This document shows, one piece after another, positions 3,290 through 44,545 of a stretch of DNA of 64,000 nucleotides. Position numbers and translations under genes: made by a program. Location of the stretch: assembly GCA_029882215.1 (NCBI GenBank), contig JAOULC010000004.1, positions 61,701-125,700 of the forward strand. The letters run 5' to 3'. Numbering within the stretch: position 1 is the stretch's first letter; every line of letters begins with the position of its first letter. Under the pieces are notes generated by a model. It was not told the origin of the DNA. It worked only from the letters and a program-made list of their open reading frames with translations, and searched no databases. This DNA comes from Gammaproteobacteria bacterium. Lineage in GTDB: Bacteria > Pseudomonadota > Gammaproteobacteria > SZUA-229.

Positions 3290-4126
3290 CTACCAGCCGA
3301 ACATCATATTATCGACTAATAAATTTTGTCCATCATACTCATTTTTAGAGGCAACTATGAATTTCTGTGTTTGTTTACTGAAACGATTCAGAAGGTTATG
3401 TGCCGCCTGACTGCCCTTTTCACTCAGTAAAAATTGTGTTATTTCAGCTTGTTTTTCTGCACTAATTCGCGCACTAATGGTAATCCCCTGATTAGTCAGC
3501 ACCTGACTCTTAGCAATGACTTTTAAGCTGCTTCGTGCCTGTTGTTCCATATTGTTTTTGAAAAAGCTCTCTCTGAAAACAGCGGCATCACATTTTCCTG
3601 CTTTAAATGCAGCATATACTTTATTAAAGCCGTCTTTAATGGCGATGAACTTTGGTTGCTGCACCTGATTAGGAAACATAGAATAAACAGACAATGTACC
3701 AAGGTGTGGTGATGGTAATACGCAGATTTTACGTGATATTAAATCTTCTTTTGTATTAATTATCGAGTTGTCATTTTTTGTCACCAGAACAAAAGCTAAA
3801 TCACCGGGCAATCTGACCAATGGATTTGCATCAGTCTTATTAAAACGCCATGCAACAAAGTGCGGACCATCAAATACGAAATCATATTTACCTGATTTCA
3901 AAAACTTCTTGTACATTGACCAGTTACCAGGATGCACATACTTTACCTCTGCACCCATAATCCTGCTCAGTTCTGCAGTGAGTGATCCATAAGTTTTTAT
4001 GCCGTCTTCAGCACTCTCTCTGGGTGGTGCCGTGAAGTAGTATTCTGCTGCTGCTGTATTAATGCTTAAAACAGTCAGCACTGCGCTGCAAAATAACGAT
4101 TTCAATAGTTTGTTTGATTTATTCAT
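3290..4126 (-). CDS. Periplasmic PhnD-like (phosphonate-binding-type, PBP2) substrate-binding protein, paralog A; no transporter partner genes
   Basis: 278 aa, N-terminal signal peptide ending AAAEYYF; sequence pattern matches phosphonate-bd/PhnD-like family (Y..L...L....G..V..V......F.K.G.YDFVF.GPHFV.WR, GKCDAAVF); ~60% identical to ORF 5150..5989. Confidence 0.7.
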   Translation of the reverse strand: MNKSNKLLKSLFCSAVLTVLSINTAAAEYYFTAPPRESAEDGIKTYGSLTAELSRIMGAEVKYVHPGNWSMYKKFLKSGKYDFVFDGPHFVAWRFNKTDANPLVRLPGDLAFVLVTKNDNSIINTKEDLISRKICVLPSPHLGTLSVYSMFPNQVQQPKFIAIKDGFNKVYAAFKAGKCDAAVFRESFFKNNMEQQARSSLKVIAKSQVLTNQGITISARISAEKQAEITQFLLSEKGSQAAHNLLNRFSKQTQKFIVASKNEYDGQNLLVDNMMFGW

Positions 4127-4157
4127 TTAATTTTACCGGGTGTCAGAAACAAAGCAG

Positions 4158-4185
4158 GCTCTAACTCATCCGATAAGTATGAACT
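4158..4185 (-). promoter_or_regulatory. Conserved 28-nt upstream box (identical copy at 6022..6049) ~30 nt 5' of the paralog A start, followed by ATATTACC-N4-GGTAATAT palindrome (4192..4211)
   Basis: Exact 28/28 identity GCTCTAACTCATCCGATAAGTATGAACT (plus strand) in both upstream regions although flanking non-coding DNA has diverged; adjacent 8-bp-arm perfect inverted repeat. Confidence 0.55.
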
Positions 4186-4559
4186 TACCTTATATTACCA
4201 TACGGTAATATTATAAATTACTTACATTAAATCAGGTCATCTGCTGTGTATAAAAGCTAATAGGCAAAAAACTTCAAATATCAGGCAAAACTGTCTGGTT
4301 AATTTTTAAAGCGGTTTATAACAGTGAATCAACTTATATAATCATGAAATTAAAAAATAATCTGCTTGATTAGACAATAGAGATAATAAGCATTATTTTA
4401 TACTCACGGATAGAGCATCTCATTAATATCATGGTTAAATTAATGCCATCATATATTGTAAATATTCACAACTCGGCTGTGTCATTAACGCTCTAACAAT
4501 AAAAAATGCTATAGTTTATTTTAATTTAGATACATAAAAGCAATCACTAAGGAGATTGT

Positions 4560-4982
4560 ATGGCGGCAGTAAAAGAAATGTCCTGGCTAGGTATAGGCAT
4601 CAGGTTTTTAATCGCCTGGATTATCGTTTTCTCAAGTTATAACCCCAGTGGTTACTCATTTGTCAGCTGGGTACTTAATACTGAATCCGGCAATATTGTC
4701 TTTAAAGTCTTTATTGGTGTTACGCTTATCATTGGCTGGGCCATATATATTCGCGCAACCAGACGGTCATTGGGGATGATTGGAATTGTACTGGCCTTTG
4801 CTTTCTTTGCCGCATTACTTTGGTTATTAATCGACCTGAACATAATACCTGCAAATACAGCGAGCGCAGTTACTTATATCGTACTTTTTATTATTGGCTG
4901 CTTGCTTGCAACCGGCATGTGCTGGTCTCATATTCGTCGTCGGATTAGCGGTCAACTGGATGTTGATGAGATTGAGAGTTAA
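4560..4982 (+). CDS. Small integral membrane protein (4 predicted TM helices), function unknown
   Basis: 140-aa ORF with strong AAGGAG Shine-Dalgarno 8 nt upstream; four hydrophobic segments; sits between the two PhnD-like paralogs on opposite strand. Confidence 0.65.
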   Translation: MAAVKEMSWLGIGIRFLIAWIIVFSSYNPSGYSFVSWVLNTESGNIVFKVFIGVTLIIGWAIYIRATRRSLGMIGIVLAFAFFAALLWLLIDLNIIPANTASAVTYIVLFIIGCLLATGMCWSHIRRRISGQLDVDEIES

Positions 4983-5149
4983 ACTTCAGTTTTGAATTGT
5001 GTGAGTTCAATACACCTAATTAAAATAGTGAGCTCACCTATTCTTCGTAAAGCCAAGCCCGTCGAATAAAAGCGGGCAACCTGTTGGCCGTGTTCCCGGG
5101 CTATACACAAAGCAACAACAGTGTCACTGCCAGCCGCTCTACAATTGTT

Positions 5150-5989
5150 TTACCAGCCGAAAATCATATTATCGACCAACAGGTTCTGACCATCATATTC
5201 ATTTTTACTGGTGTAAATAAACTTTTTATTTTTCTTACTAAAGCGTTTTAACAAATTATCAGCTGCTTCACTGCCTTCTTTGCTCACCAGAAACTCTGCA
5301 ATTTTTTTCTGTTTATCTGCACTAACACGCTTACTGATTGTTATGCCCTGATTAGTCATGGTCGGGCTCGTAGCGAGCACTTTTAAAGCTTCACGTGCAT
5401 TGTCGTCCATGTTGTGCTTATAAAAACTCTCTCTGAAAACAGCCGCATCGCACTTACCTGCTTTAAAGCTCGCATATACCTTTTTAAAGCCGCCACCGGC
5501 ACTGGCAACAAATTTTGGCTGCTGCACCTGATTGGGAAACATGGAATAAATAGCCAGCGTTCCCAGATGAGGTGATGGTATCACACAGATTTTACGGGAA
5601 ATTAAATCTTCTTTTGTTTTAATCATATTGTTGTCTTTGGCTGCAACCAGAACAAAAGAAATATCACCCGGAAGGCGGACCAAAGGATCAACATCGGTAT
5701 TATTAAATCGCCAGGATACAAAGTGCGGCCCATCAAAAACAAAGTCGTAGTCTCCCGATTTCACAAACTTTTTATAAGTTGGCCAGTTTTTTGGATGCAC
5801 ATACTTCACTTCTGAGCCCATTATTTGGCTTAGTTTAGCAACCAATGGGCCATAGGTTTCAAGCCCTTTTGCAGCACTTTCTCGTGGCGGTGCTGTGAAA
5901 AGGTATTCTGCTGTCGCAGAGCTGATGAATAACACTGAAATAAGTGCACTAGAAGATAGCAAATTAATGAATTTGTTAATTTTTACCAT
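5150..5989 (-). CDS. Periplasmic PhnD-like substrate-binding protein, paralog B
   Basis: 279 aa with signal peptide (ATAEYLF); colinear with and ~60% identical to 3290..4126; same family signatures. Confidence 0.7.
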   Translation of the reverse strand: MVKINKFINLLSSSALISVLFISSATAEYLFTAPPRESAAKGLETYGPLVAKLSQIMGSEVKYVHPKNWPTYKKFVKSGDYDFVFDGPHFVSWRFNNTDVDPLVRLPGDISFVLVAAKDNNMIKTKEDLISRKICVIPSPHLGTLAIYSMFPNQVQQPKFVASAGGGFKKVYASFKAGKCDAAVFRESFYKHNMDDNAREALKVLATSPTMTNQGITISKRVSADKQKKIAEFLVSKEGSEAADNLLKRFSKKNKKFIYTSKNEYDGQNLLVDNMIFGW

Positions 5990-6021
5990 AATTCTTACCG
6001 ATGAGAATAATTATAAAGACT

Positions 6022-6049
6022 GCTCTAACTCATCCGATAAGTATGAACT
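6022..6049 (-). promoter_or_regulatory. Second copy of conserved 28-nt upstream box, followed by ATATTA ... TAATAT inverted repeat (6050..6085) enclosing CTGCTTAAATTAGCAG hairpin
   Basis: Identical 28-mer to 4158..4185 at equivalent distance (~32 nt) from the paralog B start codon. Confidence 0.55.
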
Positions 6050-6360
6050 ATATTAACTACTGCTTAAATTAGCAGGCAATAATATCACCTTTAGTTAAAA
6101 AAAGAGTTCATTTGGTAGCGCATTTTCTACACTTCATCGCGTATTCGACCGAACTGTAATTAGTGAGTGACAAAATTTGATCGAACATCTTGTTTACTAT
6201 TTTAACTCTACTGGCGCCTGCTAGTGCAAGCTATAGCGGAGACCGAATAGCCTAAATATTATAAGGTTTTAATTATTAGTGCTGTTAAAAAATAGAGATG
6301 TGATAATTGATAAGCGGCTAAAAAACAAACAGGAATTATCATAATAAAACCCGGAGCATC

Positions 6361-7197
6361 TCACTTATTTTTATATTTTCTTTTTGAATTTTTTTTACTG
6401 ATCGGGGTTGTTTTAGATTTGAATACCCTTCTTGACTTGCTTTTTTTAGCTGCTGGTTTGTCGGTTGTTTTTTTGGAATTGACAAGTGATTTATCAATTT
6501 CAGCCATTTCGTCTCTGGTCAGGTTTCTCCACTCCCCTGTTTTCAGCTTACCTAAGTGTACATTCATTATTCGTACACGCTTTAGCTTTGTCACCTCATA
6601 ACCCAGATATTCACACATCCTCCGAATCTGACGGTTAAGGCCTTCTGTAAGGATTATTTTAAAGACAAAACGACTTTGAATAGTCACTTTACAGCGCTTA
6701 GTCACGGTATCCAGAACAGGCACCCCCTGAGACATGAGTTCAACAAAGCGCTCTGTTAGTGGTTTGTTAACCGTAACAATGTACTCTTTATCATGGTCAT
6801 TACCTGCACGCAGAATCTTGTTAACGATGTCACCGTCGCTGGTGAGAAAAATCAAACCCTCTGAGGGCTTATCCAGCCGGCCAACAGGAAAAATTCGTTC
6901 GCGGTGTCCGATAGCATCGATGATATTACCGGCAATATTACGCTCTGTTGTACAGGTAATACCGACAGGTTTGTTATAGGCAATATAAATACGGTCTGAT
7001 TTATTAACCGCACTGGGCTTTATGCGCTTGCCATCTGCGATGACAATATCTATATCTGAAACTTTACTGCCCAATTCTGGCAGCTTACCATTAATTGTCA
7101 CTCTCTTTTGCTCTATAAGCTTATCCGCCTCGCGACGAGAACAAAAACCAGAGTCACTAATAAATTTATTTAGACGAATGCCGCTATCTGTATTCAA
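6361..7197 (-). CDS. rluF: 23S rRNA pseudouridine synthase RluF (S4 domain + RsuA/RluB/RluF catalytic domain, Lys-rich C-tail)
   Basis: 278 aa; near-colinear match to E. coli RluF (SVRLNKYISESG.CSRREAD, PVGRLDKDSEGLIFLT, NRQIRRMCE); basic C-terminal tail. Confidence 0.9.
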   Translation of the reverse strand: MNTDSGIRLNKFISDSGFCSRREADKLIEQKRVTINGKLPELGSKVSDIDIVIADGKRIKPSAVNKSDRIYIAYNKPVGITCTTERNIAGNIIDAIGHRERIFPVGRLDKPSEGLIFLTSDGDIVNKILRAGNDHDKEYIVTVNKPLTERFVELMSQGVPVLDTVTKRCKVTIQSRFVFKIILTEGLNRQIRRMCEYLGYEVTKLKRVRIMNVHLGKLKTGEWRNLTRDEMAEIDKSLVNSKKTTDKPAAKKSKSRRVFKSKTTPISKKNSKRKYKNK

Positions 7198-7304
7198 AGT
7201 ATATTACGCACTATAAAAATACTAGGGTATCATAAAAAACGTTCGGTTTAGTACTCTATACTATTTATACAGCAGCAGAAGCCCTGACACAGAATAAAGT
7301 CTTT

Positions 7305-10178
7305 TTATATACCCAGTTTCTGACTGATGCTTGCTAATAATTCTTTTGCATTGATTGGTTTTGTAACATAATCATCAAAACCGGCCGCCAGCCCCCTGTC
7401 AATATCTTTCTGCATAGCATTTGCACTCAATGCAACGACAACAATATCGCGGGTTTCCTTATGCTGTTTTAAATGTCTAAGCACATCAAACCCGTTCATT
7501 CCGGGCAGATTAATATCAAGCAGTATCAGGTCTGGCCGGTGCTCGATTGCAAGCTCTAATCCTAAGAACGGCTCATGCGCACTCCACATATGAATAGAGG
7601 GCTGGTGTGACAATAATAATTGCACTAATCTCAAATTAGTCGGGTTATCTTCAATATAAAGGACGTTATATTTTTTTCCCGGATCAGAATCATTATCCAT
7701 CTTTGTATCTCCATTTGATAGCGGCAACATCGGATAATATTGTGCCGGTTTCGACTTAGCATGATCTTCTGATGAATCACCGGCAGGTAATATAAACCAG
7801 AAAGTACTGCCGATACCCGGCTGACTATCCACACCAATTTTACCTTGCATTAATTCAATGAGGTTTTTAGTAATAACTAGACCTATTCCGGTGCCTTCTA
7901 TTTCAGACTGTTCAGCACCTAAGCGATTAAAAGGTTTAAATAACTGTACCTGCTGTTCATTTGTTAAACCAGCACCGCTATCAATAATACTGACGCGAGT
8001 ATAATCACAATCAGTCGTATCATAAGTAATGACAATAGAACCGTTCTCACTATTATATTTGACCGCATTACTCAGGAGATTTAAAAGCACCTGCTTCACT
8101 CTGGTACGATCACCCTTGACGATACTTCGCTGACATAATAATTCACTAACCGCTATGGCCGTGTCATTACGTTTAATAAAAATTGTCAGACCATGTTTTT
8201 CAGCTAAAGGTGTAATTAATTTAAGTGCTTCTTCTATCAGCTCTTCAAGTGAGATAGGTTCGATTGATAACTCTATCCGGCCTGATTCTATTTTAGTAAG
8301 GTCAAGTATTTCATTAATCAGTGCTAAAAGATGCTCGCCGCCCTTTTGTATTTCGTTAACGTACTCAGTCTGTACAGAACTTAAATCATCGCCATTTAAT
8401 TCCAGTAACTGACTAAAACCTATAATCGCATTAAGCGGTGTACGCAGCTCATGACTCATGCTGGACAGAAACTGGGATTTGGCATGATTAGCATTTTCTG
8501 CCTCATCACGTGCATCCAGCAGTGCCTTTTTGGCTAACTCCCTGGAAGTAATGTCGCGCAAAACACCAACGTAACCTGACCGTACATCCCCCTGCATTGG
8601 TGTTACATTCAGTTCCATCGGAAAAGAACTGCCGTCTTTTCGGCATCCCTTAAGATCTCTTGTTCGATGGATAATCCGGGGTTCATTCAATGCTGAATTT
8701 TTAGTGTACTCTTCATGCTCATCTCTCTCATCCTGATGAAGCAAGATTGATACATTTTTGCCGATAACTTCTTCAGATGTATAATTAAATATCTTTTCAG
8801 CTGCCGGGTTAAAGCCATCGATAATGCCGTGATCATCGATGGTAACAATGGCATCTGCAATGGCTTTGAAAACGGTTCTCTGTTGTGCTTCACTTTGCTC
8901 AAGAGAGCGGGTTCTTTCTGCAACCTGTGCTTCTAAATTATCGTTTAGATCACGCAGGTTTTTTTGCGAACTGTCAACCTGCTGAATCATACTTTCAAAT
9001 GAGCGCGCCAGTACTCCCACTTCATCATTCAAATACAGCGGCAAACTTTCCAGTGAGCTTTTATTATGCGAGTAATCATCGACTGCTGACGTCATTTGTT
9101 TTATAGGACGGGTAACACGCACAGATACAAGTATTGCAATACCAGTGGCTATAAAAGCCAGAATAAGACCCCATATTGCCATATCGTTAAGTACAGCTGA
9201 CTGACTGGCAACAATATCACCAAAAGCCTGACTCATGGTCACCGAGATATATCGCTCGGGTCGTAAAGGATCGAACAGAATTTTTGAAAATACTATAGCG
9301 TAGTCACTTTTGCTTTCATCAGGTTTGAGTACATGGTGCATTTTTTTATTTTCTGGCAGAAACAGCTTAGCAAGACGGGGAATATCTTCCTGTATACGAT
9401 AACGTTTACCCAGATCAAAACCATAGGTTTTACTTTTATCAGGATGCAGTAAATAACCACCCTGATCGTTTGTTATATAAATATTTCGTCCGGTTTTCTC
9501 AATCTCATTATGAATCTTTTGTAACTCTTCACCAATTTCAGTAGTAATCAGAACAATTCCGGCTACAGCGCCCGTTCTGTTATCATATACTGGTGTCGAA
9601 GTCCGCATAACCTGACGGTGAGGCTGGCTAACTTTTCCATATTCGCGGTTAAGGTTTATTTCCGATAAATATACAGCACCACTTTCTAATTTCATTGCTT
9701 CAATAAAATAACGTCTTTTTTTCTTACTTTGTAATCGTTCATCACTCATTGCCGCTATTTTTTTAGTTTCAAAATTGCGCTCAACGACAATTAACTCCTG
9801 GCCATTTTTATCGATAAACCGAAGTGTAAGGTAGGATTTTTTACTATTTATTACCGTTGTAAAAATTGACTCCAGACGTAATTTCCACTGCGTAAATGTT
9901 GACTGACCTATCGCATCATAATTATTCGAACTTTTAGCCCGGATAATACCCTGAATCGGCGGTGTTTCAGATAAAATCAATACCTCTGCATACAGATCCT
10001 CAATTTTACTTTGTAGCCGGTTCCCGGTATTTTGAATCTCGGCTTCAATCGCGCTGAAGGTATTTTCTACTAATATATTAGAAATTTTAGTATAGAAAAG
10101 ACCGCCGATAACACTACTGGTCAGCAATACAACCAGCACTGTACTTAAGCTAAACTTATGAACAATCGATAACTTCAT
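7305..10178 (-). CDS. Hybrid sensor histidine kinase: TM - large periplasmic Cache-like domain - TM - HAMP - PAS - HisKA - HATPase_c - C-terminal REC
   Basis: 957 aa; H-box [15 protein letters not shown]-boxes GTGIGL, receiver with LILLDINLPGMNG; two TM segments flanking ~300-aa periplasmic region. Confidence 0.9.
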   Translation of the reverse strand: MKLSIVHKFSLSTVLVVLLTSSVIGGLFYTKISNILVENTFSAIEAEIQNTGNRLQSKIEDLYAEVLILSETPPIQGIIRAKSSNNYDAIGQSTFTQWKLRLESIFTTVINSKKSYLTLRFIDKNGQELIVVERNFETKKIAAMSDERLQSKKKRRYFIEAMKLESGAVYLSEINLNREYGKVSQPHRQVMRTSTPVYDNRTGAVAGIVLITTEIGEELQKIHNEIEKTGRNIYITNDQGGYLLHPDKSKTYGFDLGKRYRIQEDIPRLAKLFLPENKKMHHVLKPDESKSDYAIVFSKILFDPLRPERYISVTMSQAFGDIVASQSAVLNDMAIWGLILAFIATGIAILVSVRVTRPIKQMTSAVDDYSHNKSSLESLPLYLNDEVGVLARSFESMIQQVDSSQKNLRDLNDNLEAQVAERTRSLEQSEAQQRTVFKAIADAIVTIDDHGIIDGFNPAAEKIFNYTSEEVIGKNVSILLHQDERDEHEEYTKNSALNEPRIIHRTRDLKGCRKDGSSFPMELNVTPMQGDVRSGYVGVLRDITSRELAKKALLDARDEAENANHAKSQFLSSMSHELRTPLNAIIGFSQLLELNGDDLSSVQTEYVNEIQKGGEHLLALINEILDLTKIESGRIELSIEPISLEELIEEALKLITPLAEKHGLTIFIKRNDTAIAVSELLCQRSIVKGDRTRVKQVLLNLLSNAVKYNSENGSIVITYDTTDCDYTRVSIIDSGAGLTNEQQVQLFKPFNRLGAEQSEIEGTGIGLVITKNLIELMQGKIGVDSQPGIGSTFWFILPAGDSSEDHAKSKPAQYYPMLPLSNGDTKMDNDSDPGKKYNVLYIEDNPTNLRLVQLLLSHQPSIHMWSAHEPFLGLELAIEHRPDLILLDINLPGMNGFDVLRHLKQHKETRDIVVVALSANAMQKDIDRGLAAGFDDYVTKPINAKELLASISQKLGI

Positions 10179-10223
10179 AGGTTTTTGTCCGTTACCACTA
10201 CAGCCCGGCAGACCTGTTCAGAA

Positions 10224-11123
10224 TTATTCTGCATAAGCCTCCACTTTCAGTTTTTTCATTAGTGTATTGACAACACTATAGTTGTGCGCCGGCACCCAGC
10301 CAATGTATTTACCCGCTTTTGCAGCCAGGGTCTCAGGTTCCAGCGACAGGAGTATTTGCTGTATCTGCTGTTGCAGTTTTTGCGGAACGTTTCGCATTGC
10401 GGCAAAGCTCCACTCTGGGTACAGCTCTGTACTAAGAAAAAAAGGAAAGCTCTCTATATCTTTATTATTAAGAATACGAAAATATCTGAGATCAATTTCA
10501 CCGGTTGACTCCATATTTTCAAGCGTATCAGTTCGCACTACACCTACATCGGCTATACTATCCCTGACTGCCCGGACAACTTCCTGATGGGTTCTTGACT
10601 TACTAAACAATAATTTACGGGCGTCTTTGTACGGATCAAAATCATTTTTAAGCATCTCATACCACGCCATGCGCCAGCCACCAAATGCTGACTCTGATAC
10701 CGCCATCAGAACTTTGTCTTTAAAGTCTGATATTTTAATAATATTTTCATTACGCACATGGGTAAAGATCACCGATCCAAACTGATCCTGAGCTGTATTC
10801 GCGCGTTTATTGTTTAACGTAACCAATGCAGTTGCTCCGTATAATTGGTCTATTTCAACAAAAGATGACGGGTTAGTTAATACAAAATCAAACTCATGCT
10901 GACCTGCCAGTTTTGTTAATTCCTCCAGTTTTAATACAGGCATAAGGAAGAATCTATGCTCTGGGAATTGTGCATTCAGCACATTGACTGTTTGCTGCCA
11001 CTGTTGCTTGGCCTTTTCAATGCCATGATGTGCCCTGACAGCAATCCGGTATTCTTTAGCCAGCAAGCCCTGAGACAGAAATATGCACATCATTATCATA
11101 AGGGCTTTAATTGCTGGTCTCAT
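10224..11123 (-). CDS. Periplasmic PhnD-like substrate-binding protein, predicted co-sensor, co-transcribed upstream of hybrid kinase 7305..10178
   Basis: 299 aa with signal peptide; PhnD/phosphonate-bd family pattern (YRIAV..., SESAFGGW, DVGVVRTD); 45-nt gap to downstream kinase on same strand. Confidence 0.75.
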   Translation of the reverse strand: MRPAIKALMIMMCIFLSQGLLAKEYRIAVRAHHGIEKAKQQWQQTVNVLNAQFPEHRFFLMPVLKLEELTKLAGQHEFDFVLTNPSSFVEIDQLYGATALVTLNNKRANTAQDQFGSVIFTHVRNENIIKISDFKDKVLMAVSESAFGGWRMAWYEMLKNDFDPYKDARKLLFSKSRTHQEVVRAVRDSIADVGVVRTDTLENMESTGEIDLRYFRILNNKDIESFPFFLSTELYPEWSFAAMRNVPQKLQQQIQQILLSLEPETLAAKAGKYIGWVPAHNYSVVNTLMKKLKVEAYAE

Positions 11124-11369: not shown

Positions 11370-11843
11370 TTAAGGTGATTCATACCACTCAAGCATGCCT
11401 GATCCTGGCTTCAGGTCCTTCCATTGTTCAATATCAAAGCTGATACAACAAAGACCCGCTGTATTAAAAGTAAGCGTTTCACCCGTCAGGCTATTGGCTA
11501 ATTCAGACCAGGTAGGTTCATGACCTACCAGCATAACAACCTTGTCGTTTTCACTGAGGTGCTTGAATAATTCAAACAGCACGTTAACTGTGGTGTTATA
11601 AAGTGCATCTGTAACGGTACTGTCACACTCCCACTGCCCTGCCATCATTGCCAGATTCATGGTTTCAACAGCCCGGCTGGCTGATGAACAGACCACCAGA
11701 TCCGGGTGAATGTCTTTTTCATTAAGCAATTCGCCCATGAATTTTGCCTGCTGTATACCATGTTTGGTCAGGGTTCTTTCATGGTCACTGGGAGCATCCA
11801 TTCCGGACTTTGCATGACGAAAAATTAAAAGTGTGTGTGACAT
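11370..11843 (-). CDS. sixA: Phosphohistidine phosphatase SixA (histidine phosphatase superfamily)
   Basis: 157 aa; RHG motif (LIFRHAKS), catalytic His in LVGHEP; size and pattern typical of SixA. Confidence 0.8.
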   Translation of the reverse strand: MSHTLLIFRHAKSGMDAPSDHERTLTKHGIQQAKFMGELLNEKDIHPDLVVCSSASRAVETMNLAMMAGQWECDSTVTDALYNTTVNVLFELFKHLSENDKVVMLVGHEPTWSELANSLTGETLTFNTAGLCCISFDIEQWKDLKPGSGMLEWYESP

Positions 11844-17084: not shown

Positions 17085-19919
17085 TTAAAAAGCGCCGCCG
17101 ACTTTAAGGTAATAATATTCATCACCGGTTTCATCCAGTCCCTGTGCATAACCCAGACGGATTTGCGGTGTAAAATTATAAAAAAAATTAAGATCGATCA
17201 GCCACTCCACACCGACACTTTGCAACGGTTTTTTATCCTGACCATCAAACCAGCTAGCACCTGTTTCGGCAAACAGCCTGCCAGAGTGCTTCATAATACC
17301 TACAGGGGGTGCCATAATGCCTTTTTCAACATGCCGTAATGGAAAGCGCCACTCGATGGAAGCCAGCTGCAGATGATTACCCATTTGAGTATTATCAGCA
17401 TAGCCGCGCAATGCAAAGTGACGTTTATTAAATGTCGTGCGGGAATATTGGGGGTTAAGTAGTGTTACTGAATCCCAGTCACTCTCTAAGCCACCAATTG
17501 TGTAGGCTCGCATGTCAGGATCTGCACTGGCTGTTACGTATCTTAAGGCCAAGCTGTGGTGTGAACCAAGCCTGAAATATTCGCGCCAGTCGAGAGTGGT
17601 CGCTGTGCCTGAATAATCACTGCTGAATACATCACTACTCTCTGTTACCAGCAACACATCTCTGCCAGTTTCAGGGCTGTTACCTTTCATAAATGACTGT
17701 TTACTGTCATAAAAGATGCTGAACCCCAACAAATCATCACTTTGATCCAGAAAGCCGGTGACACCGCTGGCACGATAAACATCTGCTTCATGATTATCGA
17801 TCAGGCCCAAACTTAATCGCCAGCGACTTTTTAAGCTAGTGAACGGTAAAGAAAAACGTAATTGTGCCTGACGGTTGGTTCTGATGATATCTGTCAGCCC
17901 CGTTGAATGATTTGAGAAAAGGCTGTTTTCTCTGGCGACGACAAAGCCCAGCCAGTTATCATACTGATACAGTAAGGAGCCGGTCAGGTCAGACTGTTCA
18001 TAGCCGTAAGCCAGATTGAGCTGATAATAATGGTTGTCTAATGAATCATTTGAAGATGTTATAAAACCAATCTCACTGGCTTTATCCTGCAGCACCAGCC
18101 ATGGAAACCAGTATTTAGGGATAAGGTCCGGCCAGGGAGAATACTCCTTAAACGTGTATGTTAATGTGTCATCTGGCAAAGGCTCATTAAAACGAATGAG
18201 CCGCTTCACGGCTGGCTTTAACTGCGGTGGATGGCTTGCTTGCAGGTCCGTTGAATGAATCGTATAGCCGTCTCTTGCAAATAACTGATAATACAGGCGC
18301 TCATTATGCAGCACAGGAGAAAACGCACCGCTAACAACATTAGTCAGCGGCGTAAAAACAGCAGAATTAAATGGCTTAACATATATATTGTAAACACCGC
18401 TTATATCACTGCTAAATAAAACAGCAGACTGATCAGGCGTATATCGCGCCTGCATAAAATTGGCGTTATCTGCAACCAGCTGGCTCCAGTTTGATGATGT
18501 TAAGTCAAACTCATGGATTCCCCATTTTGTATTCAGCTCTTTTTTGCTAACCAGTAGCCTGCCTCTTTCATCAGACCAGTCGAGGCTACTGACAACATCA
18601 CCATATTGTCCGCTCCATAATGTTTTTATCAGTTGTGCATTTTGATCCAGTAAATCAATCTGCGGAACGGAAGCAACTGTCCTCGCTGCAAGCAAATGAC
18701 CGGTCTTTTTTACAACGGTAATGTTTTTATAGCGAGAGCACTTAGTCAGCTGCTCAAGCTGTTGTGTTACCAGACTGTAACGGTATAGATCATAGTAAAT
18801 ACTATATTCGTCGCAGAATTCCGGCTGTGAAATATAGATCAGATTATCTTCGCCAACACTAAAGTAACTGTCTCTGTTTAATTCAATTAATGCTGTCTTC
18901 TTTGTATTTTTCAGCAGCATTAATTGTGAAACAGTTTCATAGTTATCTTCGATATAAAGCATTGCTCCATCATCCATGAACTGGATAACCGATAATTGAT
19001 GCGGCTGATTAACAATAACAACATCCGGCTTGGATTTTACCGCTTCAAGTGCTGATATCTGTCCGCTAAAACGATGCGTAAGATAGAGTTTAAACTCGTC
19101 CCATAGCTGCGATATATCTTTGCCAAAAACACGTTTGCTGTTTGAGTTTATTGAAAATGGCACGATGTTATCACTGTAAAGCTGAATCATTTTATTAATG
19201 GATTCAATACCGTAGCGGTCTTTTAAAAACTGATAGAAAAAAACACCATACAGATAATGTCGCCCCAGTGGCTGACTATCAACCGGCAAGTTCACCGTCT
19301 CCACCGCCAGCAAGCCTTGCCTTATCTCTTCCCGCATCAGCATTTCAAAACCGCTGCTTTGTCCTCTGCCAATACCCTCATGGGTTTCATAATGCGTCGC
19401 CAGACCCTCAATAAGCCATTTTGGTTGCAGGATATTTGGAAACAGTAGAAGATAACGGCCAAACACTTTTCGCAGAGAAGACACCTTGCCGACAGATTTA
19501 TCCAGATGAAAAATATGTGTCAGCTCATGCTCAATCAATAATGTTAACCAGTCATCATAATCTTCAAGCTGGGCGGGTTTATCCGCCGGTGAAAGCTGCA
19601 ACACCATTCTGTTGAAGGGGTAAGGTGTAGCACTGCCATTTGCCCAATCCTGATCATCTGAAACAACAATGCTTATTTTATCTTTGGGTGTCCATGCCAG
19701 TTTTTGTTGCAGTTCAAGATAGAATTTTTCAGCAATAAATGCAGAGCGCTTTGCCTGAGCTCGGTATGCCTCAAGATAGTGAACATTAAAGTGTTCGCTA
19801 ACTAAGGTTTCCCAGTGAGCTGAAGGGTTCGCGGCTAATGCAGATGAGGTATTAAAAACAAAAAAGATTAATAGAAAACGCGTCATCCATAAGTACATAG
19901 TAATATTATATTTCCGCAA
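17085..19919 (-). CDS. Outer-membrane protein with N-terminal HExxH zinc-peptidase-like domain, central TolB-like beta-propeller, and C-terminal Omp85-type beta-barrel
   Basis: 944 aa; signal peptide (…SSALA); HELTH motif ~aa 130; PD40-like repeats (DWSDERGRLLV, YTPDQSAVLFSSDISGVYNIYV); C-terminal aromatic-terminal barrel signature …YYLKVGGAF. Confidence 0.6.
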   Translation of the reverse strand: MRKYNITMYLWMTRFLLIFFVFNTSSALAANPSAHWETLVSEHFNVHYLEAYRAQAKRSAFIAEKFYLELQQKLAWTPKDKISIVVSDDQDWANGSATPYPFNRMVLQLSPADKPAQLEDYDDWLTLLIEHELTHIFHLDKSVGKVSSLRKVFGRYLLLFPNILQPKWLIEGLATHYETHEGIGRGQSSGFEMLMREEIRQGLLAVETVNLPVDSQPLGRHYLYGVFFYQFLKDRYGIESINKMIQLYSDNIVPFSINSNSKRVFGKDISQLWDEFKLYLTHRFSGQISALEAVKSKPDVVIVNQPHQLSVIQFMDDGAMLYIEDNYETVSQLMLLKNTKKTALIELNRDSYFSVGEDNLIYISQPEFCDEYSIYYDLYRYSLVTQQLEQLTKCSRYKNITVVKKTGHLLAARTVASVPQIDLLDQNAQLIKTLWSGQYGDVVSSLDWSDERGRLLVSKKELNTKWGIHEFDLTSSNWSQLVADNANFMQARYTPDQSAVLFSSDISGVYNIYVKPFNSAVFTPLTNVVSGAFSPVLHNERLYYQLFARDGYTIHSTDLQASHPPQLKPAVKRLIRFNEPLPDDTLTYTFKEYSPWPDLIPKYWFPWLVLQDKASEIGFITSSNDSLDNHYYQLNLAYGYEQSDLTGSLLYQYDNWLGFVVARENSLFSNHSTGLTDIIRTNRQAQLRFSLPFTSLKSRWRLSLGLIDNHEADVYRASGVTGFLDQSDDLLGFSIFYDSKQSFMKGNSPETGRDVLLVTESSDVFSSDYSGTATTLDWREYFRLGSHHSLALRYVTASADPDMRAYTIGGLESDWDSVTLLNPQYSRTTFNKRHFALRGYADNTQMGNHLQLASIEWRFPLRHVEKGIMAPPVGIMKHSGRLFAETGASWFDGQDKKPLQSVGVEWLIDLNFFYNFTPQIRLGYAQGLDETGDEYYYLKVGGAF

Positions 19920-37578: not shown

Positions 37579-37620
37579 AACGATTTCGTCATGCTATGTT
37601 AATTAAAACAGGTTAATAAC

Positions 37621-38748
37621 ATGGAATTATCCACTTGTGACAGCCTGACAAAAATCCCCGCTGACTCATGGAATGAATTAGCGGGAGATACTAATCCATT
37701 TATACAGCACGATTTTCTGCTAGCCTTAGAACAACACAGCTGCCTGCACCCGTACGGCTGGCACCCGATGTTTCTTTTAATAAAAGAAGGTGAGAAACTG
37801 CTCGGCGCTGCCCCGGCTTATATTAAAACCAACTCCTATGGTGAATTTGTTTTCGACTGGTCATGGGCAGATGCATACCAGCAGGCCGGCAAACCGTATT
37901 ATCCGAAAATGGTGATTGCTATACCTTTCACTCCGGCAAACACTGCTAAATTTTTAGTACACCCGGATGCCGACACTCAGCTAATCATCGGTAAACTCAC
38001 AGAGTTTAGCCTGTACGTAGCAAAGGAATATAAACTATCCAGTATTCATAATCTGTTTATTTCAGAAGACATTACTAAGCAGCAAACACAGTCTGGTTTT
38101 TTCCAGCGAATTGATTGTCAGTTTCACTGGAAAAATAATCACTACACTGACTTCGATCATTTCCTCTCAGCATTAAAGCCTAAAAAGCGTAAGAACATCA
38201 GACAGGAAAGAAGAAAAGTAATGAATTCTTCTATCAAAATACAGCGCATAAATGGCACTGATCTTACTGACGATCAGTGGCTAAAACTCTATGATTTTTA
38301 CCGTATTACGTTTATGAAAAAATCAGGCTCCCCTACCCTGACACTCGAATTCTTCAAGGCCATCAAACATAAAATACTGGCCATCATTGCGGCCACTAGT
38401 GATGAAATGGTGGCCGGTGCCATTTGTATTATCGGCAAAGAAACATTGTATGGCCGGCACTGGGGCTGTTTTGAAGATTATGATGGCCTGCATTTTGAAG
38501 CCTGCTACTATCAGGGTATTGAATACTGTATCGAACACAAACTATCGGGCTTTGAACCCGGTGCTCAGGGTGAGCATAAAATATCACGTGGTTTTTTACC
38601 GACCATCACATGGTCAAGCCACTGGGTTGCCGATGAACAATTCCGCCAAATCATAACTACTCATTGTGCACGTGAAAGACAATACATGCAGCAACACTAT
38701 CAGGAATTATTAGAAAAAACACCGTACAGTATTGTTAATCAAGCCTAA
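37621..38748 (+). CDS. GNAT-family N-acetyltransferase (FemAB-like/DUF482 type)
   Basis: 375 aa with N-terminal WNEL...NPFIQHDFL.ALE.S pattern typical of this family. Confidence 0.5.
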   Translation: MELSTCDSLTKIPADSWNELAGDTNPFIQHDFLLALEQHSCLHPYGWHPMFLLIKEGEKLLGAAPAYIKTNSYGEFVFDWSWADAYQQAGKPYYPKMVIAIPFTPANTAKFLVHPDADTQLIIGKLTEFSLYVAKEYKLSSIHNLFISEDITKQQTQSGFFQRIDCQFHWKNNHYTDFDHFLSALKPKKRKNIRQERRKVMNSSIKIQRINGTDLTDDQWLKLYDFYRITFMKKSGSPTLTLEFFKAIKHKILAIIAATSDEMVAGAICIIGKETLYGRHWGCFEDYDGLHFEACYYQGIEYCIEHKLSGFEPGAQGEHKISRGFLPTITWSSHWVADEQFRQIITTHCARERQYMQQHYQELLEKTPYSIVNQA

Positions 38749-38847
38749 AACGTTAACATAGGTTCTGTACCAAAAATAAAGGAAGACATTTTTTTTCATT
38801 AACAGCTAAGATAACGCTCAGCATATTTTGCTAAAGGATTTAACACT

Positions 38848-39350
38848 ATGGCTACTAAACTTCCCAGCTGGTTCAGATACAGTTTATCCGTTTTATTACT
38901 ACTGGCTGCCAGCAATTACTGTTTAGCATATAAAGATGTCATACCCCGTTACGCACTGATCATCGGTAATGCCGACTATCAATTCTCGCCATTAAAAAAC
39001 CCGCTCAATGATGCCAACGATATCGCAGGCACTTTAAAATTACTGAGGTATCAGGTGACTCTGGGCTTTGATCAGAAACCGGAGCAATTAAGAAACACAG
39101 TAGATAGCTTTTACAGTAGAATCAAAGAGAATAAAGCGGTCAGTTTGTTTATTATGCCGGTCATGCCATTCAGGCTGATAACGTGAACTATTTAATACCG
39201 GTTAACGCTGGCATCAGTAGTTTTGATCTGTTAAGAACACGTGCATTTTCTACCAATCAATTACTGCAGTCACTCAAAAAATCAGCCAGCAAACAAAACA
39301 TCATTATTCTCGACGTCTGCAGAAACGGCACCTATACGTCATATTTCTAA
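38848..39350 (+). pseudogene. Secreted caspase-like (peptidase C14) gene disrupted by -1 frameshift at a T-run (~39148..39151) and C-terminally decayed
   Basis: Signal peptide + YALIIGNADY... in frame 1 to 39186; frame 2 continues VYYAGHAIQ...ILDVCRN (catalytic His/Cys dyad) to stop at 39350; further frame-switching caspase-like debris to ~39430. Confidence 0.65.
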
Positions 39351-39977
39351 ATCAGAAACAGCAGAAGCCTTATTTAAGAAAATACGCAGAGATGTACTGG
39401 CCGCCACAAATAACCGGCAAACACCGTGAGAACATTCCTCACTGATCGAAACCTTTTACGTTACCCCCCGGCAAATGAAGAAACCCCGGATGTCATCAGC
39501 TTTTAGAAGATACTGATAACACCGAGCAGCAACATCGTTGAACGTTCACTGATATTTTTAAACTCAATTTGTCCGTAACCATATTGTTTAACGACTGAAC
39601 GTAAAGTGATTGAGTGCACACTGTATTAGTAATTAATAATATTATGTTTTATAAATAAATTAGAGTAAATAAAATTGTGCCTTTTTTAAAGCACTGCTAA
39701 GGCCAGCGCTATCTCTATGTAATTACTTGAAAAACATGTGCAATATCAATGAGAGAAAATATATTTTTTTTATAAAAGTATTCTATACTCTTGATAACCT
39801 AGGAAATCTATCAAGAATTATGCTGATTTTTTCTAGGACAGAGAATAATTACAGAAAAAAGAAACGGCGTGATCTTAATTTTTCAGATATTTACAACAGT
39901 CCTAATCTTTATTCAAAAATTATCGATGATTTATATAGTGTATTTGATCACATTAGATTTAAGTACAAGGAGCAGAT

Positions 39978-40940
39978 ATGAGCAGCAAGCATTGTGATTC
40001 TTCGGTGAGACTCAACCTAAGCATGACTTTTTCGATTTTATTTTTTCTTATGGTTCTTGTGTCTATAACGGCATGTGATCAATCCTCGCAGTCGCAGTCC
40101 TCACAAACTCCTCAGTATGGTGACAGTTCGACTCTGGATAGCAAACCTGTCTATCGTTTCGCCATTCACCCACTGCATAATCCTCGTAAGTTAACAGAGG
40201 TCTATCAACCGCTCATTAACCAGCTTAACGCGAAAATTCCCAGCGTGCACTTCCAGGTTGAAGCATCTCGTGATTACCAGGCTTATGAAATGAAATTTCG
40301 CGCCCGTGAAGCGGAATTTTTATTACCTAACCCGTGGCAAACGCTTGAGGCCATAAAAGTAGGCTATTCCGTCATTGCCATGGCCGGTAACGCCGAAGAT
40401 TTTAAAGGCATTTTCGTTGTACGCAATGATAGTGGTATCAAAGTACCGACTGACCTAAAAGGTAAAAAGGTGAGTTGTCCTTCTCCCACCGCACTGGCAG
40501 CCTGTATTATGCCACATCAATATTTACACAATCATGGCGTGAACGTGCAAGCCGATATCGAAAAGTTGTATGTTGGTTCTCAGGAGTCATCCATAATGAA
40601 TACTGCTTTGGGCAGTGTTGCCGCTGGTGCAACCTGGCCACCTCCATGGCGTGCCTTTCAAAAAGACCACCCGGAAGATGCCGCCAAGCTTAAGGTGATA
40701 TGGGAAACACCGCATCTGCTCAATAACTCGGTAATGGTGCGTAAAGATGTACCTGCAAATATACGCGATCAGGTTAAACAGATACTCCACGATTTACATA
40801 AAACCCCTGCAGGTCAGGAGCTTCTAAACGGAATGGAAACAGCACGTTTTCATCCGGCGGATGACGGAACCTATGACAAGGTTCGTCAGTTCGTTGCACG
40901 TTTTGAAAAAGAAGTTCGACCAGTAGAGGTTAAAAAATAA
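39978..40940 (+). CDS. PhnD-like periplasmic lipoprotein (substrate-binding, predicted ligand-sensing partner of downstream kinase)
   Basis: 320 aa; lipobox ITAC; strong PhnD-family pattern (YRFAIHP, SCPSPTALAACIMP, LKVIWETP); stop overlaps kinase start (ATAATGG). Confidence 0.8.
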   Translation: MSSKHCDSSVRLNLSMTFSILFFLMVLVSITACDQSSQSQSSQTPQYGDSSTLDSKPVYRFAIHPLHNPRKLTEVYQPLINQLNAKIPSVHFQVEASRDYQAYEMKFRAREAEFLLPNPWQTLEAIKVGYSVIAMAGNAEDFKGIFVVRNDSGIKVPTDLKGKKVSCPSPTALAACIMPHQYLHNHGVNVQADIEKLYVGSQESSIMNTALGSVAAGATWPPPWRAFQKDHPEDAAKLKVIWETPHLLNNSVMVRKDVPANIRDQVKQILHDLHKTPAGQELLNGMETARFHPADDGTYDKVRQFVARFEKEVRPVEVKK

Positions 40941-43900
40941 TGGGAAAAGCGTTAACGTATTTTTTTTCTGGAAACCTGCGTCGTCGATTGTTGTTTAGTG
41001 TAGCCGCAATACACGCTGTGATGATGAGTGTTTTTATCTGGGATCTGACAGAGCGCCAGCAGGATATGATCCTCAGCCAGCAGACCCGGTTAGCGACGGC
41101 CCTGGCGCAAAGTGTTGCAACTTCTACCGCTATTTGGTTGCAGGCACGCGACGTTGCCGGACTACAGGAAATTATAGAATCCCAAAAACGATATCCAGAA
41201 TTGAGTTTTGGTATGGTCGTTACGGCTGATGGCGAAATTCTCGCGCATACGGATCAATCACTTCGAGGTCGTTACTTAACTGACCTGCCTGCAAGGCCAG
41301 AGCAACATCTCTTTCGTCAGGATGAGAGCCTGGTCGATGTCGCTACGCCTGCACTGGTTGCAGGACAACATGTCGGATGGGTGCGCATTGGTGTCGGCAA
41401 AGGCGTCACCCATAGCGAATTAGCCGCGCTCACGCGTGACGGCGTGTTCTATACCTTGTTTGCGATACTGGTTGGTTCGTTACTGGCCGCTTTACTGGCC
41501 CGACAAATGACACGTCGACTCAATATTATTCAGTCGACAGCAGACGCTGTGCAGGCCGGGGAGTCAGGGAGGCGCGCGAATGTAGCCGGTGATGACGAGG
41601 CAGCTATTCTTGCTCGCCAATTTAATCGCATGCTGGATACGCTGGAAGAACGCGAGCAAGAGCTGGAACAACATCGAAGCCATCTTGAGGAAACAGTCGC
41701 TGAACGTACCACAGACCTGGCAAGTAAAAATAAACTGTTCGAATCCATCAGTAGGATGCAGGCACAATTTATTCGTGAGCAGGACCCGCAGGAATTGTTC
41801 AGTTGCATCGTACAGGAGTTTGCCGCACTGACTGATAGTGAAATGGGCTTTGTCGGTGATATTCATCGCCACGAGGATGGATATAACTACCTGAAAGATT
41901 ATTCCTTCTTTAACGTACCTCAGGATGAAGCGTCGCAGCATTTTTATGAAAAACACAAAGCCACCGGCTTTATGTTCCGGCAGGATCAGCACCCCAACTT
42001 GTTTAACCAGGTCATTACGGATCGCACAGTGATTATTGCCAATGCGCCGGCGCGCGGCTCACACTCTACCGGTCTTCCTGATGGTCATCCGCCGTTACAA
42101 AATTTCCTTGGTATCCCCGTCTTTTATGGCGAACGCCTTGTGGGTGAGATCGGCCTGGCCAATCGAACAGGTGGCTACAACCGGGCTGTGGTTGATATGC
42201 TCAAACCGGTAATTGATGCCTGTGGTCGTATCATCGTCGCTCGTTGGGATCAATCGGCACGTGAGGAAGCTGAAGCGGCAGCCATCGAAGCACAGAAAAC
42301 GGCCGAGTCGGCAAATGAAGCGAAGAGCATGTTCCTGGCGAATATGAGCCATGAATTACGTACCCCACTTAATGCCATTCTTGGCATGTTGTATTTAGCG
42401 CTACGCAATGATTTGCCGGATGCGCTACGTAACCAGTTAAGTAAGGCGCGGTCATCTGCACACTCCTTATTAAGTATCATCAATGACATTCTTGATCTCT
42501 CCAAGATTGAAGCTGGCAAGCTTGAGATCGAAAAAATCGAGTTTGGTCTTGATGGTGTGTTGGAGCGCGTGACGGATATTGTCGCGGGGCAGGCGGCGGA
42601 CAAAAATATCGAGTTCCTGATTCGCTATGATAACGAGATACCGTGCACCCTGGTTGGTGACCCACTTCGACTGGGGCAGGTGTTAATCAATCTTTGTGGT
42701 AATGCGGTAAAGTTCACCGAAGTAGGCCAGGTAGAATTATCCTTTCATGCAGATGAAGTTACCGATACTACGCTCACCGCACGCATTTGTGTCATGGATA
42801 GTGGTCTTGGAATGTCCACTGATTTACAAGCACAGCTATTTGAAAAATTTGTTCAGGCAGATCAAAGTAGTACTCGTCGCTTCGGTGGCACCGGACTCGG
42901 ACTGGCAATTTCCAGGATGCTGGTGGAGATGATGGGCGGTCGTATCTGGGTTGAACATTCTGAACCCGGATCGGGAACCACGTTCTGTCTGTCCCTGCCG
43001 CTGGGTATTGCCTCTCAAGCACGGCGGAGTCATCGTGAAGATGTAGTAAAACGAGTCGGACACATGCTCAAGGGTAAGCGTGTACTGGTGGTGGACGATA
43101 ATGAAGTGTCGCTCGAAATATTAGCGGAAATGATGCGTGATTTTCAGTTTGAAGTTGATGTTGAGCCTAGCGGCGCAGCAGCACTGGCTAGAGTAGAAAT
43201 CGCTGGAGATGGTTATTATGATGTGGTGTTGACCGACTGGTCCATGCCGGGTATGAATGGCGATGAGGTCGTTCGCAAACTGCGCCGAAATGCAACGATG
43301 ACCTCGCTTCCCAAATTCATTATCGTTACCGCTTACGGGCGCGAAGACGTGCTCGAGGATGCTGAACGAGCTGGTGCGGACGGTTTTCTGGTTAAGCCCG
43401 TTTCACCTTCGGCACTGCTCGATACGACACTTGAGGTGTTGGGTCGTGAACGATTATGGGACACCACGTCAGAACCTGTTAGTTTACGAAAAACCAGTAA
43501 AGGATATAACTTTTCAGGGATGCGTTTACTGCTAGTAGAAGATAATGAAATCAACCGCGAGTTTGCAGGCATATTGTTACGCAGCGAGGATATTGAAGTC
43601 GATGAGGCAATCAATGGCCTTGAAGCCATCAGCCGTGTACAGGAAAAGACATATGATGGTGTACTGATGGACGTGCAGATGCCGGTAATGGATGGTTTAG
43701 AAGCGACACGCCAGATTCGTGCACTGGCTAACAACCCCGGACAAGAATACTTTGCCAGTTTACCTATTATCGCCATGACAGCACTCGCCATGGAGAAAGA
43801 TATCGAGAGAACCCGTGATGCAGGAATGAATGATCATGTCACTAAGCCTGTTGAGCCAGAGCAGTTAATGGCGACTCTTGCCAAATGGGTTAAACACAAA

Positions 43901-44545
43901 GAACAGAAAAGAAGTATTTCACAGACTTTTGAGCCACCAGAGGATATGAAAGCGCTAATTAATCTCGATGTAAAAGGTGGTATTCATCGCATTGGCGGTA
44001 ATGCTAATGCCTATCGGAAACAATTGAAACGCTTCAGCAAAAACTATGCTGATTGCACCACGGAATTGCAACGTTTTATTGATAAAGAAGGCACGCAGCA
44101 GGCCGAGGGTTACTGCCATGCACTTAAAGGTGTTACCGGTAATATTGGGGCAAAAAAGCTTCATGAAAAAGTAACAGAGCTTGATGATTTACTCAAACAG
44201 AATCAGATTCCAGAGAAGACAGCCTTAAATGAAATGGAGGTTTTACTACAAGCTGTACTCAGTGATATTGAAAGTTTATTAGAAACCTCAGATACCTCAA
44301 TGTCAGTCGACTGTGAGCCTCTGAAGGCGATAGAATTACATAACCTTCTGCAGAAATTACTAAATGCTCTGGAAACCGATCTGGGAGCTGTCGAAACATT
44401 AGTTATTAAGCTTCAGCACGGCCTGACTGACAGCGACCAAAAGGCCGCAATAGAAGCAATAGCGCGTCAGATTGACTGCTTTGACACAGATACCGCTATT
44501 GATTTAATTAACCAATTTCAGTCTGAATTAAACATTACAAATTAA
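40940..44545 (+). CDS. Hybrid sensor histidine kinase: TM - small periplasmic domain - TM - HAMP - GAF - HisKA - HATPase_c - REC - REC - Hpt
   Basis: 1201 aa; [16 protein letters not shown]-box; [18 protein letters not shown]; two receiver domains ([13 protein letters not shown]; [12 protein letters not shown]); C-terminal Hpt ([12 protein letters not shown]). Confidence 0.9.

Follow-up and report, generated by a model that had tools for sequence, protein, structure and literature searches.

PhnD/PtxB-type binding proteins at three gammaproteobacterial loci: two predicted kinase co-sensors and an orphan pair

The 64 kb window analyzed in this study (the whole stretch of DNA presented) comes from a 170 kb metagenomic contig, labeled by NCBI as a gammaproteobacterial metagenome-assembled genome (MAG), and four of the window's genes encode proteins of the Pfam family PF12974 (Phosphonate-bd), here called P1, P2, P3, and P4. 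In our judgment, the three separate loci that hold these genes quite probably use the PhnD/PtxB-type fold outside transport, with P3 and P4 acting as co-sensors of the kinases encoded next to them and with P1 and P2 forming a separate orphan pair. The sensing role of P3 and P4 is well supported; that of P1 and P2 is unproven and is one of several possibilities. A first-pass annotation of this DNA had described four PhnD-like proteins, and their open reading frames (ORFs) were verified exactly where it had placed them (Table 1). Its assignment was confirmed at the level of the family by a Pfam scan of all window ORFs of at least 100 amino acids (aa), in which P1, P2, P3, and P4 scored 96.0, 96.0, 107.5, and 170.7 bits, respectively, against a PF12974 gathering cut-off of 27 bits and covered nearly the full 242-position model. 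The models of P1 and P3 matched PtxB, HtxB, ArrX, PhnD, and AioX with a Foldseek probability of 1.00. Two properties were considered for a binding-protein-dependent sensor kinase: export, as read from the sequence, is predicted for all four proteins, and a conserved pairing with a kinase was found for P3 and P4, not for P1 and P2. For P3 and P4, the family, the fold, the export signals, the translational coupling, and the conserved pairing with one type of periplasmic domain are shown.

Table 1. Positions of the PF12974 genes, their operon partners, and the repeated upstream element in the window
Feature	Position	Strand	Basis
P1, orphan PF12974 protein, no operon partner	3290..4126	-	Pfam 96 bits, family signature
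28-nt element upstream of P1	4158..4185	-	28/28 identity to P2 element
P2, old paralog of P1	5150..5989	-	71% aa identity to P1
28-nt element upstream of P2	6022..6049	-	28/28 identity to P1 element
Transmembrane hybrid kinase: double-Cache-like HK_sensor_dom_bact, HAMP, PAS, HisKA, HATPase, receiver	7305..10178	-	Pfam
P3, free-standing PF12974 protein, TtrS sensor-domain type, predicted co-sensor of next kinase	10224..11123	-	Pfam 107.5 bits, NF040750
P4, lipoprotein-type PF12974 binding protein, predicted co-sensor of next kinase	39978..40940	+	Pfam 170.7 bits, lipobox, stop/start overlap
Transmembrane hybrid kinase: sCache_3_2, HAMP, GAF, HisKA, HATPase, two receivers, Hpt	40940..44545	+	Pfam
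Cytoplasmic hybrid kinase, third gene of the P4 operon: two receivers, two PAS, kinase core, receiver	44554..47406	+	Pfam

P3 and P4 and the kinases encoded beside them

The P4 operon (39978-47406) is tightly packed. An AAGGAG ribosome-binding site precedes the ATG of P4, the stop codon of P4 overlaps the start codon of the transmembrane kinase (TAATG), and the gap from the kinase stop codon to the cytoplasmic hybrid kinase is 8 nt. The N-terminus of P4 carries a lipobox (..VSITAC, i.e., ITAC) whose cysteine, Cys33, is invariant in 26 homologs, and we therefore read the P4 family as lipoproteins from sequence alone. The partner kinase is 1201 aa long, and two hydrophobic segments enclose residues about 35-168, which form the sCache_3_2 domain.

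A P4-type gene directly followed by an sCache_3_2 hybrid kinase gene was found in all five independent contexts, which were the window, Methylomonas sp. LL1, a Thiobacillus MAG, a 'Candidatus Thio...' MAG, and a 1 Mb metagenomic contig. The sensor domains of the Methylomonas and Thiobacillus kinases, the two that were tested, are homologous to that of the window kinase (145-174 bits), and the cytoplasmic modules of the partner kinases vary (GAF or PAS). Of the four contexts other than the window, three have a receiver-HD-GYP gene beside the P4-type pair (on its upstream side in Methylomonas and locus L181, on its downstream side in Thiobacillus), and in locus L178 the pair is followed by a receiver-PAS-kinase gene resembling the third gene of the window operon. 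Relatives of P4 numbered 3,927 at E ≤ 1e-10, and those in Methylomonas, Thiobacillus, Chromatiales, and Hydrogenophilaceae were 60-69% identical to it. The pair is thus very widespread, cultured Methylomonas included, and its ligand is a tractable question; no experimental study of it was found in the literature searched.

In the P3 operon (7305-11123), the kinase lies downstream, with 45 nt between the stop codon of P3 and the kinase start. The signal peptide of P3 is read as ending at ..GLLA/KEY, and the kinase (957 aa) has a periplasmic region of about 300 aa and hydrophobic segments at about residues 9-29 and 333-353. The best NCBIfam match of P3 was the TtrS model NF040750 (positions 3-263 of 555, 138 bits), and its AlphaFold model, with a predicted local distance difference test score (pLDDT) of 83, matched PtxB, HtxB, and ArrX at template modeling (TM) scores of 0.65-0.80. 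Sequence searches of the solved structures with P3, as a single protein and as a profile, gave no match.

An exhaustive search of 1.84 billion representative proteins with P3 returned 3,800 matches. Among the best 150 of these, 90 contained a kinase core, 17 a GGDEF/EAL domain, 30 were other long proteins, and 13 were of at most 400 aa. Since at least 107 of these 150 nearest relatives are fused to kinases or GGDEF proteins, P3 represents the free-standing form of a sensor domain that is usually built in. Likewise, at 41-48% identity the relatives form the N-terminal part of a kinase or, in one instance, of a GGDEF protein. P3 descended from fused sensor domains. A family in which one sensor domain occurs both kinase-fused and free provides a clean system for studying the communication between binding domain and kinase.

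The pairing of P3 with its kinase was followed through 79 related loci from a metagenome scan, in which the free-standing relatives have at least 47% identity. In 35 of the 40 free-standing loci with a visible downstream gene, the P3-type gene precedes a kinase gene, and the periplasmic domain of that kinase is homologous to that of the window kinase. In two further loci (L107 and L109), the next gene encodes a small protein of about 400 aa; that of L107 has a chemoreceptor signaling domain (MCPsignal, Pfam), and its near-twin in L109 is presumably the same. Across 25 complete P3-type pairs, the identity of the binding proteins correlated with that of the periplasmic domains of their kinases (r = 0.81, a value reached by none of 999 permutations), compared to r = 0.22 for the catalytic cores of the same kinases. 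These correlations are consistent with joint evolution of the binding protein and the periplasmic domain and with exchange of the cytoplasmic modules, although contact between the first two is not proven by them. A second P3-type operon from the same sample, in locus L010 and possibly of the same organism, had a tetranucleotide correlation of 0.90 with the window, compared to 0.97-0.98 for contigs of the same genome.

We propose the following mechanism. As a lipoprotein, P4 would be anchored to the membrane, and P3 would be soluble; each would bind a small ligand in the periplasm. Ligand-bound P4 would dock on the sCache_3_2 domain of the adjacent kinase, and ligand-bound P3 on the double-Cache-like domain of its own neighbor. 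Docking would alter the autophosphorylation of the kinase and hence a multistep phosphorelay, which for P4 would include the second, cytoplasmic hybrid kinase of the same operon. The first-pass annotation had stated that two of the four proteins are fused in operons to large hybrid kinases and had suggested a sensing module. The operons with hybrid kinases are there, as adjacent genes and not as fusions. The sensing suggestion suits P3 and P4, which are predicted to be exported and are conserved beside Cache kinases; for P1 and P2 it is unproven, and no constant kinase, GGDEF, chemoreceptor, or transporter neighbor of P1-type genes was found across 80 loci.

Several observations were made beside these genes. 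A SixA-like phosphohistidine phosphatase gene (His_Phos_1, 157 aa; 11370-11843, minus strand) shares the strand of P3 and precedes it by 246 nt; as a candidate partner of P3 it was rejected, as it is not conserved beside P3-type genes elsewhere. In loci L008 and L107, which come from related metagenomic genomes, several PF12974 signaling modules are packed within 5-15 kb, and a receiver-HD-GYP gene lies just upstream of a P3-type gene in both. L008 contains two P3-type genes. In L107, a PF12974 and kinase pair adjoins the P3-type gene, which is followed by the small MCPsignal gene and then by STAS and SpoIIE-type genes. Five giant proteins of 1,900-3,300 aa (P0361, P0363, P0365, P0366, and P0368) contain four to eight P3-like stretches, eight in the largest, and no kinase or GGDEF domain was detected in them by the queries used.

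Transport and recent amplification as alternatives

The automatic annotation of all four genes is 'phosphate/phosphite/phosphonate ABC transporter substrate-binding protein', and one alternative is that they are indeed ordinary transport binding proteins whose ATP-binding cassette (ABC) or other membrane parts are encoded elsewhere in the genome. PF12974 is named for binding proteins of ABC transport, and binding-protein genes remote from their transporter genes are documented (PMC9602780). Moreover, when the solved structures were searched with the P4 profile, the best matches were the transport proteins PhnD1, PtxB, and HtxB; ArrX was found at E = 1.8e-9, and AioX was not recovered at E ≤ 1e-3. 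However, the scan of the window ORFs detected no ABC ATPase or permease domain, and a six-frame tblastn search with E. coli PhnC and the N-terminus of PhnE gave nothing in the window at E ≤ 1, in agreement with the earlier statement that adjacent ABC components are lacking. As a positive control, the PhnC query detected the ZnuC-like ABC ATPase of locus L010. Elsewhere, the ABC ATPase gene nearest to a P1-type gene was never closer than 1.3 kb (80 loci), and that nearest to a P3-type gene never closer than 1.5 kb (79 loci). A kinase is found instead in five of five P4-type contexts, and the P3 relatives are mostly fused to signaling proteins.

The tests for PhnD itself pointed the same way. 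Against the PhnD equivalog TIGR03431, P1, P2, P3, and P4 scored 26.6, 24.6, 31.3, and 77.0 bits, below the cut-off of 261.1, and by this measure none of the four qualifies as PhnD. The ligand residues of PhnD, reportedly described by Alicea and coworkers in 2011, are Y47, Y93, S127, T128, S129, H157, E177, and D205 (E. coli mature numbering), and we confirmed these eight positions on the E. coli PhnD sequence. P4 keeps only Y47 (as Y100); Y93, H157, E177, and D205 are replaced by F142, Q202, P222, and N250, and the S-T-S segment by T/A/L. In P1, the residue at Y47 is W69, which is aromatic at most, H157 is replaced by F, D205 by Q213, and S-T-S by L-G-T. The P3 profile gave no alignment with E. 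coli PhnD (2% probability), though the predicted fold is the same. Since the PhnD ligand residues are not kept where they can be aligned, phosphonate is unlikely as the ligand of any of the four proteins. We consider the transport explanation improbable, and the ABC-transporter annotation is probably wrong for all four. Mislabeled PF12974 genes of this kind would inflate the estimates of phosphonate use in environmental genomes.

The first-pass annotation had further suggested that the lineage has expanded this fold, and a second alternative along this line is that one binding-protein gene was recently amplified into a family of sensors. The four genes do lie within 38 kb, and P1 and P2, which are 71% identical and 1.9 kb apart, are true paralogs, as had been proposed. 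In contrast, the identity of P3 and P4 to P1 is no more than 18-20%. Profile-profile comparison tied the three families together at 95-96% probability and at 17-22% identity only, so that the kinship of P1, P3, and P4 is seen at the profile level alone and amplification is refuted as far as P1 vs. P3 vs. P4 is concerned. In addition, each of the three has relatives of 40-69% identity in other genera, some of them in other orders. The indexed search returned 283 relatives of P3, nearly all from uncultured Gammaproteobacteria, and 145 of P1, and the search of species-representative genomes, a set that left out the window's own genome, gave 227 P1-family matches. Genomes with P1-family genes are labeled Thiohalophilus, Thioalkalispiraceae, Ectothiorhodospiraceae, Chromatiales, and Thiohalomonadales, i.e., sulfur-oxidizer lineages. 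Even the sole true duplication, that of P1 and P2, is old (see below). Judged by their divergence, the four genes are three old subfamilies, each spread well beyond this organism, and not one expansion. We regard a recent lineage-specific amplification as extremely improbable.

The orphan pair P1 and P2

The duplicates P1 and P2 differ at a proportion of synonymous sites (pS) of 0.70, which corresponds to a dS of about 2, and their dN/dS is 0.10. The saturated synonymous sites indicate that the duplication is old and not recent, and the low dN/dS indicates that both genes have been kept by purifying selection and are functional. Their signal peptides, as read from the sequence, are typical, that of P1 ending at ..TAAA/EY. 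A 28-nt element, AGTTCATACTTATCGGATGAGTTAGAGC, lies about 32 nt ahead of the start codon in both genes. The upstream DNA around it cannot be aligned, and the synonymous sites of both genes are saturated, as stated above. The element has only two copies in the window, where none is expected by chance, and it is probably a shared putative regulator binding site. A function of the element as RNA was considered and rejected: it had no Rfam match and no fold better than that of shuffled sequence. In other genomes, no copy of the element was found ahead of P1-type genes.

The P1 family has a clear signature, which consists of APPRE, DGPHF..WR, LPSPxLG, TNQG, two invariant cysteines, and a C-terminal FGW. 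In 38 sequences of the family, 28 columns are invariant, and many of these fall into the four segments APPRE, DGPH, LPSPxLG, and TNQG. The last three align with ligand-contacting segments of PhnD, and the loop that follows the first strand contains APPRE. The location of the conserved segments suggests one defined ligand. R36, E37, H89, R94, N212, and Q213 are the invariant polar or charged residues, and a small polar ligand would therefore suit P1 better than a sterol. The AlphaFold model of P1 (pLDDT 91.8) matched ArrX (top match), PtxB, HtxB, XAC2383, PhnD, AioX, and BstB. A search of the solved structures with the single P1 sequence gave a marginal match only, while the profile did better. 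Two other features of the family were observed. The invariant ..FGW ends a tail of low model confidence (P1 residues 265-278), which might be a docking or sorting motif, and the invariant C135 and C179 of P1 lie on or beside neighboring predicted strands in the model, where they may form a disulfide.

Two or three P1-type copies were found in several genomes, and tandem arrays in five of the 80 loci. When about 500 neighbors from 77 P1-type loci were clustered, only two families recurred. One is a cytoplasmic protein of about 566 aa without a Pfam match, encoded divergently from the P1-type gene in 35 of the 77 loci (e.g., L096, 4995-6701, minus strand). The other is a DsbH/DUF255 thioredoxin-like protein, whose gene lies beyond the former in 31 of the 77 (e.g., L096, 3037-4980, plus strand). 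Both, seen in loci L027-L096, are absent from the window and were rejected as required partners of P1; because of this absence they look like clade-specific synteny. The window neighbors of P1 and P2, i.e., the genes of a DUF6524 protein, a rhomboid protein, and a pseudouridine synthase, were also rejected as partners, none of them being conserved in related loci.

Most likely, P1 and P2 bind one defined polar or anionic ligand, as the conserved residues suggest, and deliver or signal it to a partner encoded elsewhere. A different possibility is that they are not sensors but periplasmic carriers or chaperones, for a lipid or for a sulfur intermediate, which work with a non-ABC partner. A precedent is BstB of Methylococcus capsulatus (Methylococcaceae), a periplasmic sterol carrier that belongs to PF12974 and has no signaling role and no ABC partner (PMC10942540). 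The BstB structure 7t1m matched the P1 model with TM scores of 0.68/0.73, equal to the top match. P1-type genes are almost never beside signaling genes, and the family occurs, often in several copies or tandem arrays, in genomes labeled as sulfur-oxidizer lineages. On the other hand, the P1 family profile had no sequence match to BstB at E ≤ 0.01, no bstA- or bstC-like neighbors were seen at P1-type loci, and the invariant residues of P1 are polar or charged. We therefore give the carrier role a lesser though real chance.

Several points weigh against the view that the three loci hold two co-sensors and an orphan pair working outside transport. Five of the 40 free-standing P3-type loci lack the kinase. 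The adjacency of the genes and the co-variation of their products would also fit simple co-inheritance, so that contact of P3 and P4 with their kinases is deduced rather than seen. The complete Cache domains of both kinases could bind ligands alone, and the binding protein might then modulate and not sense. As for P1 and P2, only one of 83 P1-family genes has a signaling gene on the same strand within 150 nt, and BstB, which carries a sterol without signaling, and ArrX match the P1 model about equally well. Thiohalophilus thiocyanatoxydans DSM 16326, which is in culture, has a P1-family gene beside a GGDEF gene (locus L080). A more far-reaching joint reading is that P3-type operons represent an undescribed architecture, in which a TtrS-type sensor domain has been freed beside a double-Cache kinase, and that P1 and P2 found a new family of orphan periplasmic receptors. 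We hold this joint reading to be rather unlikely. If it were true, P3 and its kinase would form a sensor with two inputs, and the signals might be sulfur oxyanions, e.g., thiosulfate or tetrathionate. P1 and P2 would then belong to a receptor family of genomes labeled as sulfur-oxidizing Gammaproteobacteria and their relatives, with a cysteine pair, an FGW tail, and a dedicated 28-nt control element, and with a partner that is neither an ABC transporter nor an adjacent kinase.

Genomic setting and relation to known systems

The other genes of the window encode a P-type ATPase, the rhomboid protein and pseudouridine synthase mentioned above, UvrC with a UvrY-like regulator, fatty-acid oxidation, and the threonine pathway; an rpoS-nlpD-pcm-surE block, a sucrose cluster, and glycogen genes were also found. 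Housekeeping genes (uvrC, fatty-acid oxidation, rpoS-nlpD-pcm-surE) lie between the three PF12974 loci, which therefore do not form a functional island, and no functional significance is evident in their lying within 40 kb of one another. PF12974 genes typically number a handful in a proteobacterial genome. From this we infer that about 0.05 such genes would be expected among the approximately 48 genes of the window, and that three independent loci (with the duplicate pair counted once) would be very unlikely by chance, unless the genome is rich in PF12974 genes; the counts for this genome cover the window only.

Some further features touch none of these genes directly. The sucrose cluster, in 48112-63674, consists of genes for an amylosucrase-like protein, fructokinase, sucrose-phosphate phosphatase, and sucrose-phosphate synthase, and it is followed by the glycogen genes (phosphorylase, 4-alpha-glucanotransferase, GH57, glgC, and glgB). 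An ORF of 944 aa at 17085-19919 (minus strand) gave no Pfam match and resembles a TolB propeller only faintly. In 38848-39977, the match of a 112-aa ORF to the caspase-like Peptidase_C14 domain is confined to the first 67 positions of that domain, so that the ORF is probably a truncated gene, and about 790 nt of AT-rich non-coding DNA lie between it and P4.

Among the known systems, AioX/AioS and its Arx and Arr relatives use a free PF12974 protein as the ligand sensor of a kinase with a single-Cache-like sensor (PMC5908839; PMC8050422), and the AioX pocket contains Tyr88, Cys106, Tyr131, Ser161, Ser163, His192, and Asp210 (PMC5908839). The P4 operon shares this architecture, in that a free PF12974 protein is encoded directly upstream of a single-Cache-like transmembrane kinase and no ABC transporter is present. 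A likeness to the AioX family is also seen in ArrX, which is among the solved-structure matches of P4 and ranks first among the structures matched by the P1 model. However, P4 lies outside the AioX subfamily, as the transport-type PhnD1 and PtxB scored higher with its profile. In addition, P4 is a predicted lipoprotein, and the hybrid kinase next to it contains GAF, two receivers, and Hpt and has a second kinase after it. Unlike the AioXSR, ArxXSR, and ArrXSR loci, the P4 locus has no AioR-type (sigma-54) regulator and no aio, arx, or arr genes nearby, as judged from the Pfam scan of the window. PhnD, PtxB, and HtxB themselves share the Pfam family and the type II binding-protein fold with the four proteins, but the window has no phnC or phnE.

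P3 is best compared with TtrS and ThsS, kinases with a fused PhnD-like periplasmic sensor for tetrathionate and thiosulfate, respectively; 838 kinases with a fused sensor of this kind were counted in UniProt in 2017 (PMC5408782). The best curated match of P3 is the sensor part of TtrS, and its nearest relatives are mostly N-terminal kinase domains. In contrast to TtrS, P3 is a separate polypeptide, and in its partner kinase the place that the PhnD-like domain takes in TtrS is occupied by the kinase's own double-Cache-like periplasmic domain. The score of P3 (138 bits) is also far from the TtrS cut-off of 750, and the window has no ttr, phs, or tetrathionate/thiosulfate reductase genes. The proposed logic of P3, a free periplasmic binding protein that would dock on a kinase with a double-Cache-like or other periplasmic domain, resembles that of LuxP/LuxQ, TorT/TorS, ChvE/VirA, and CBP/ChiS, which are binding-protein-dependent kinases with PAS- or Cache-like periplasmic domains (PMC8050422). 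The binding proteins of those systems belong to other Pfam families (Peripla_BP_4, SBP_bac_5, and others), and no described pair of a PF12974 protein and a double-Cache kinase was found in the literature searched. As for BstB, it is similar in structure to the P1 and P3 models, and P1 differs from it in lacking a sequence match and RND (resistance-nodulation-division; BstA) or BstC neighbors and in having polar conserved residues. The sensing principle of P3 and P4 is thus already known from AioX/AioS and TtrS, and nothing in the current understanding is overturned; P3 and P4 are further, uncharacterized members of this group of systems.

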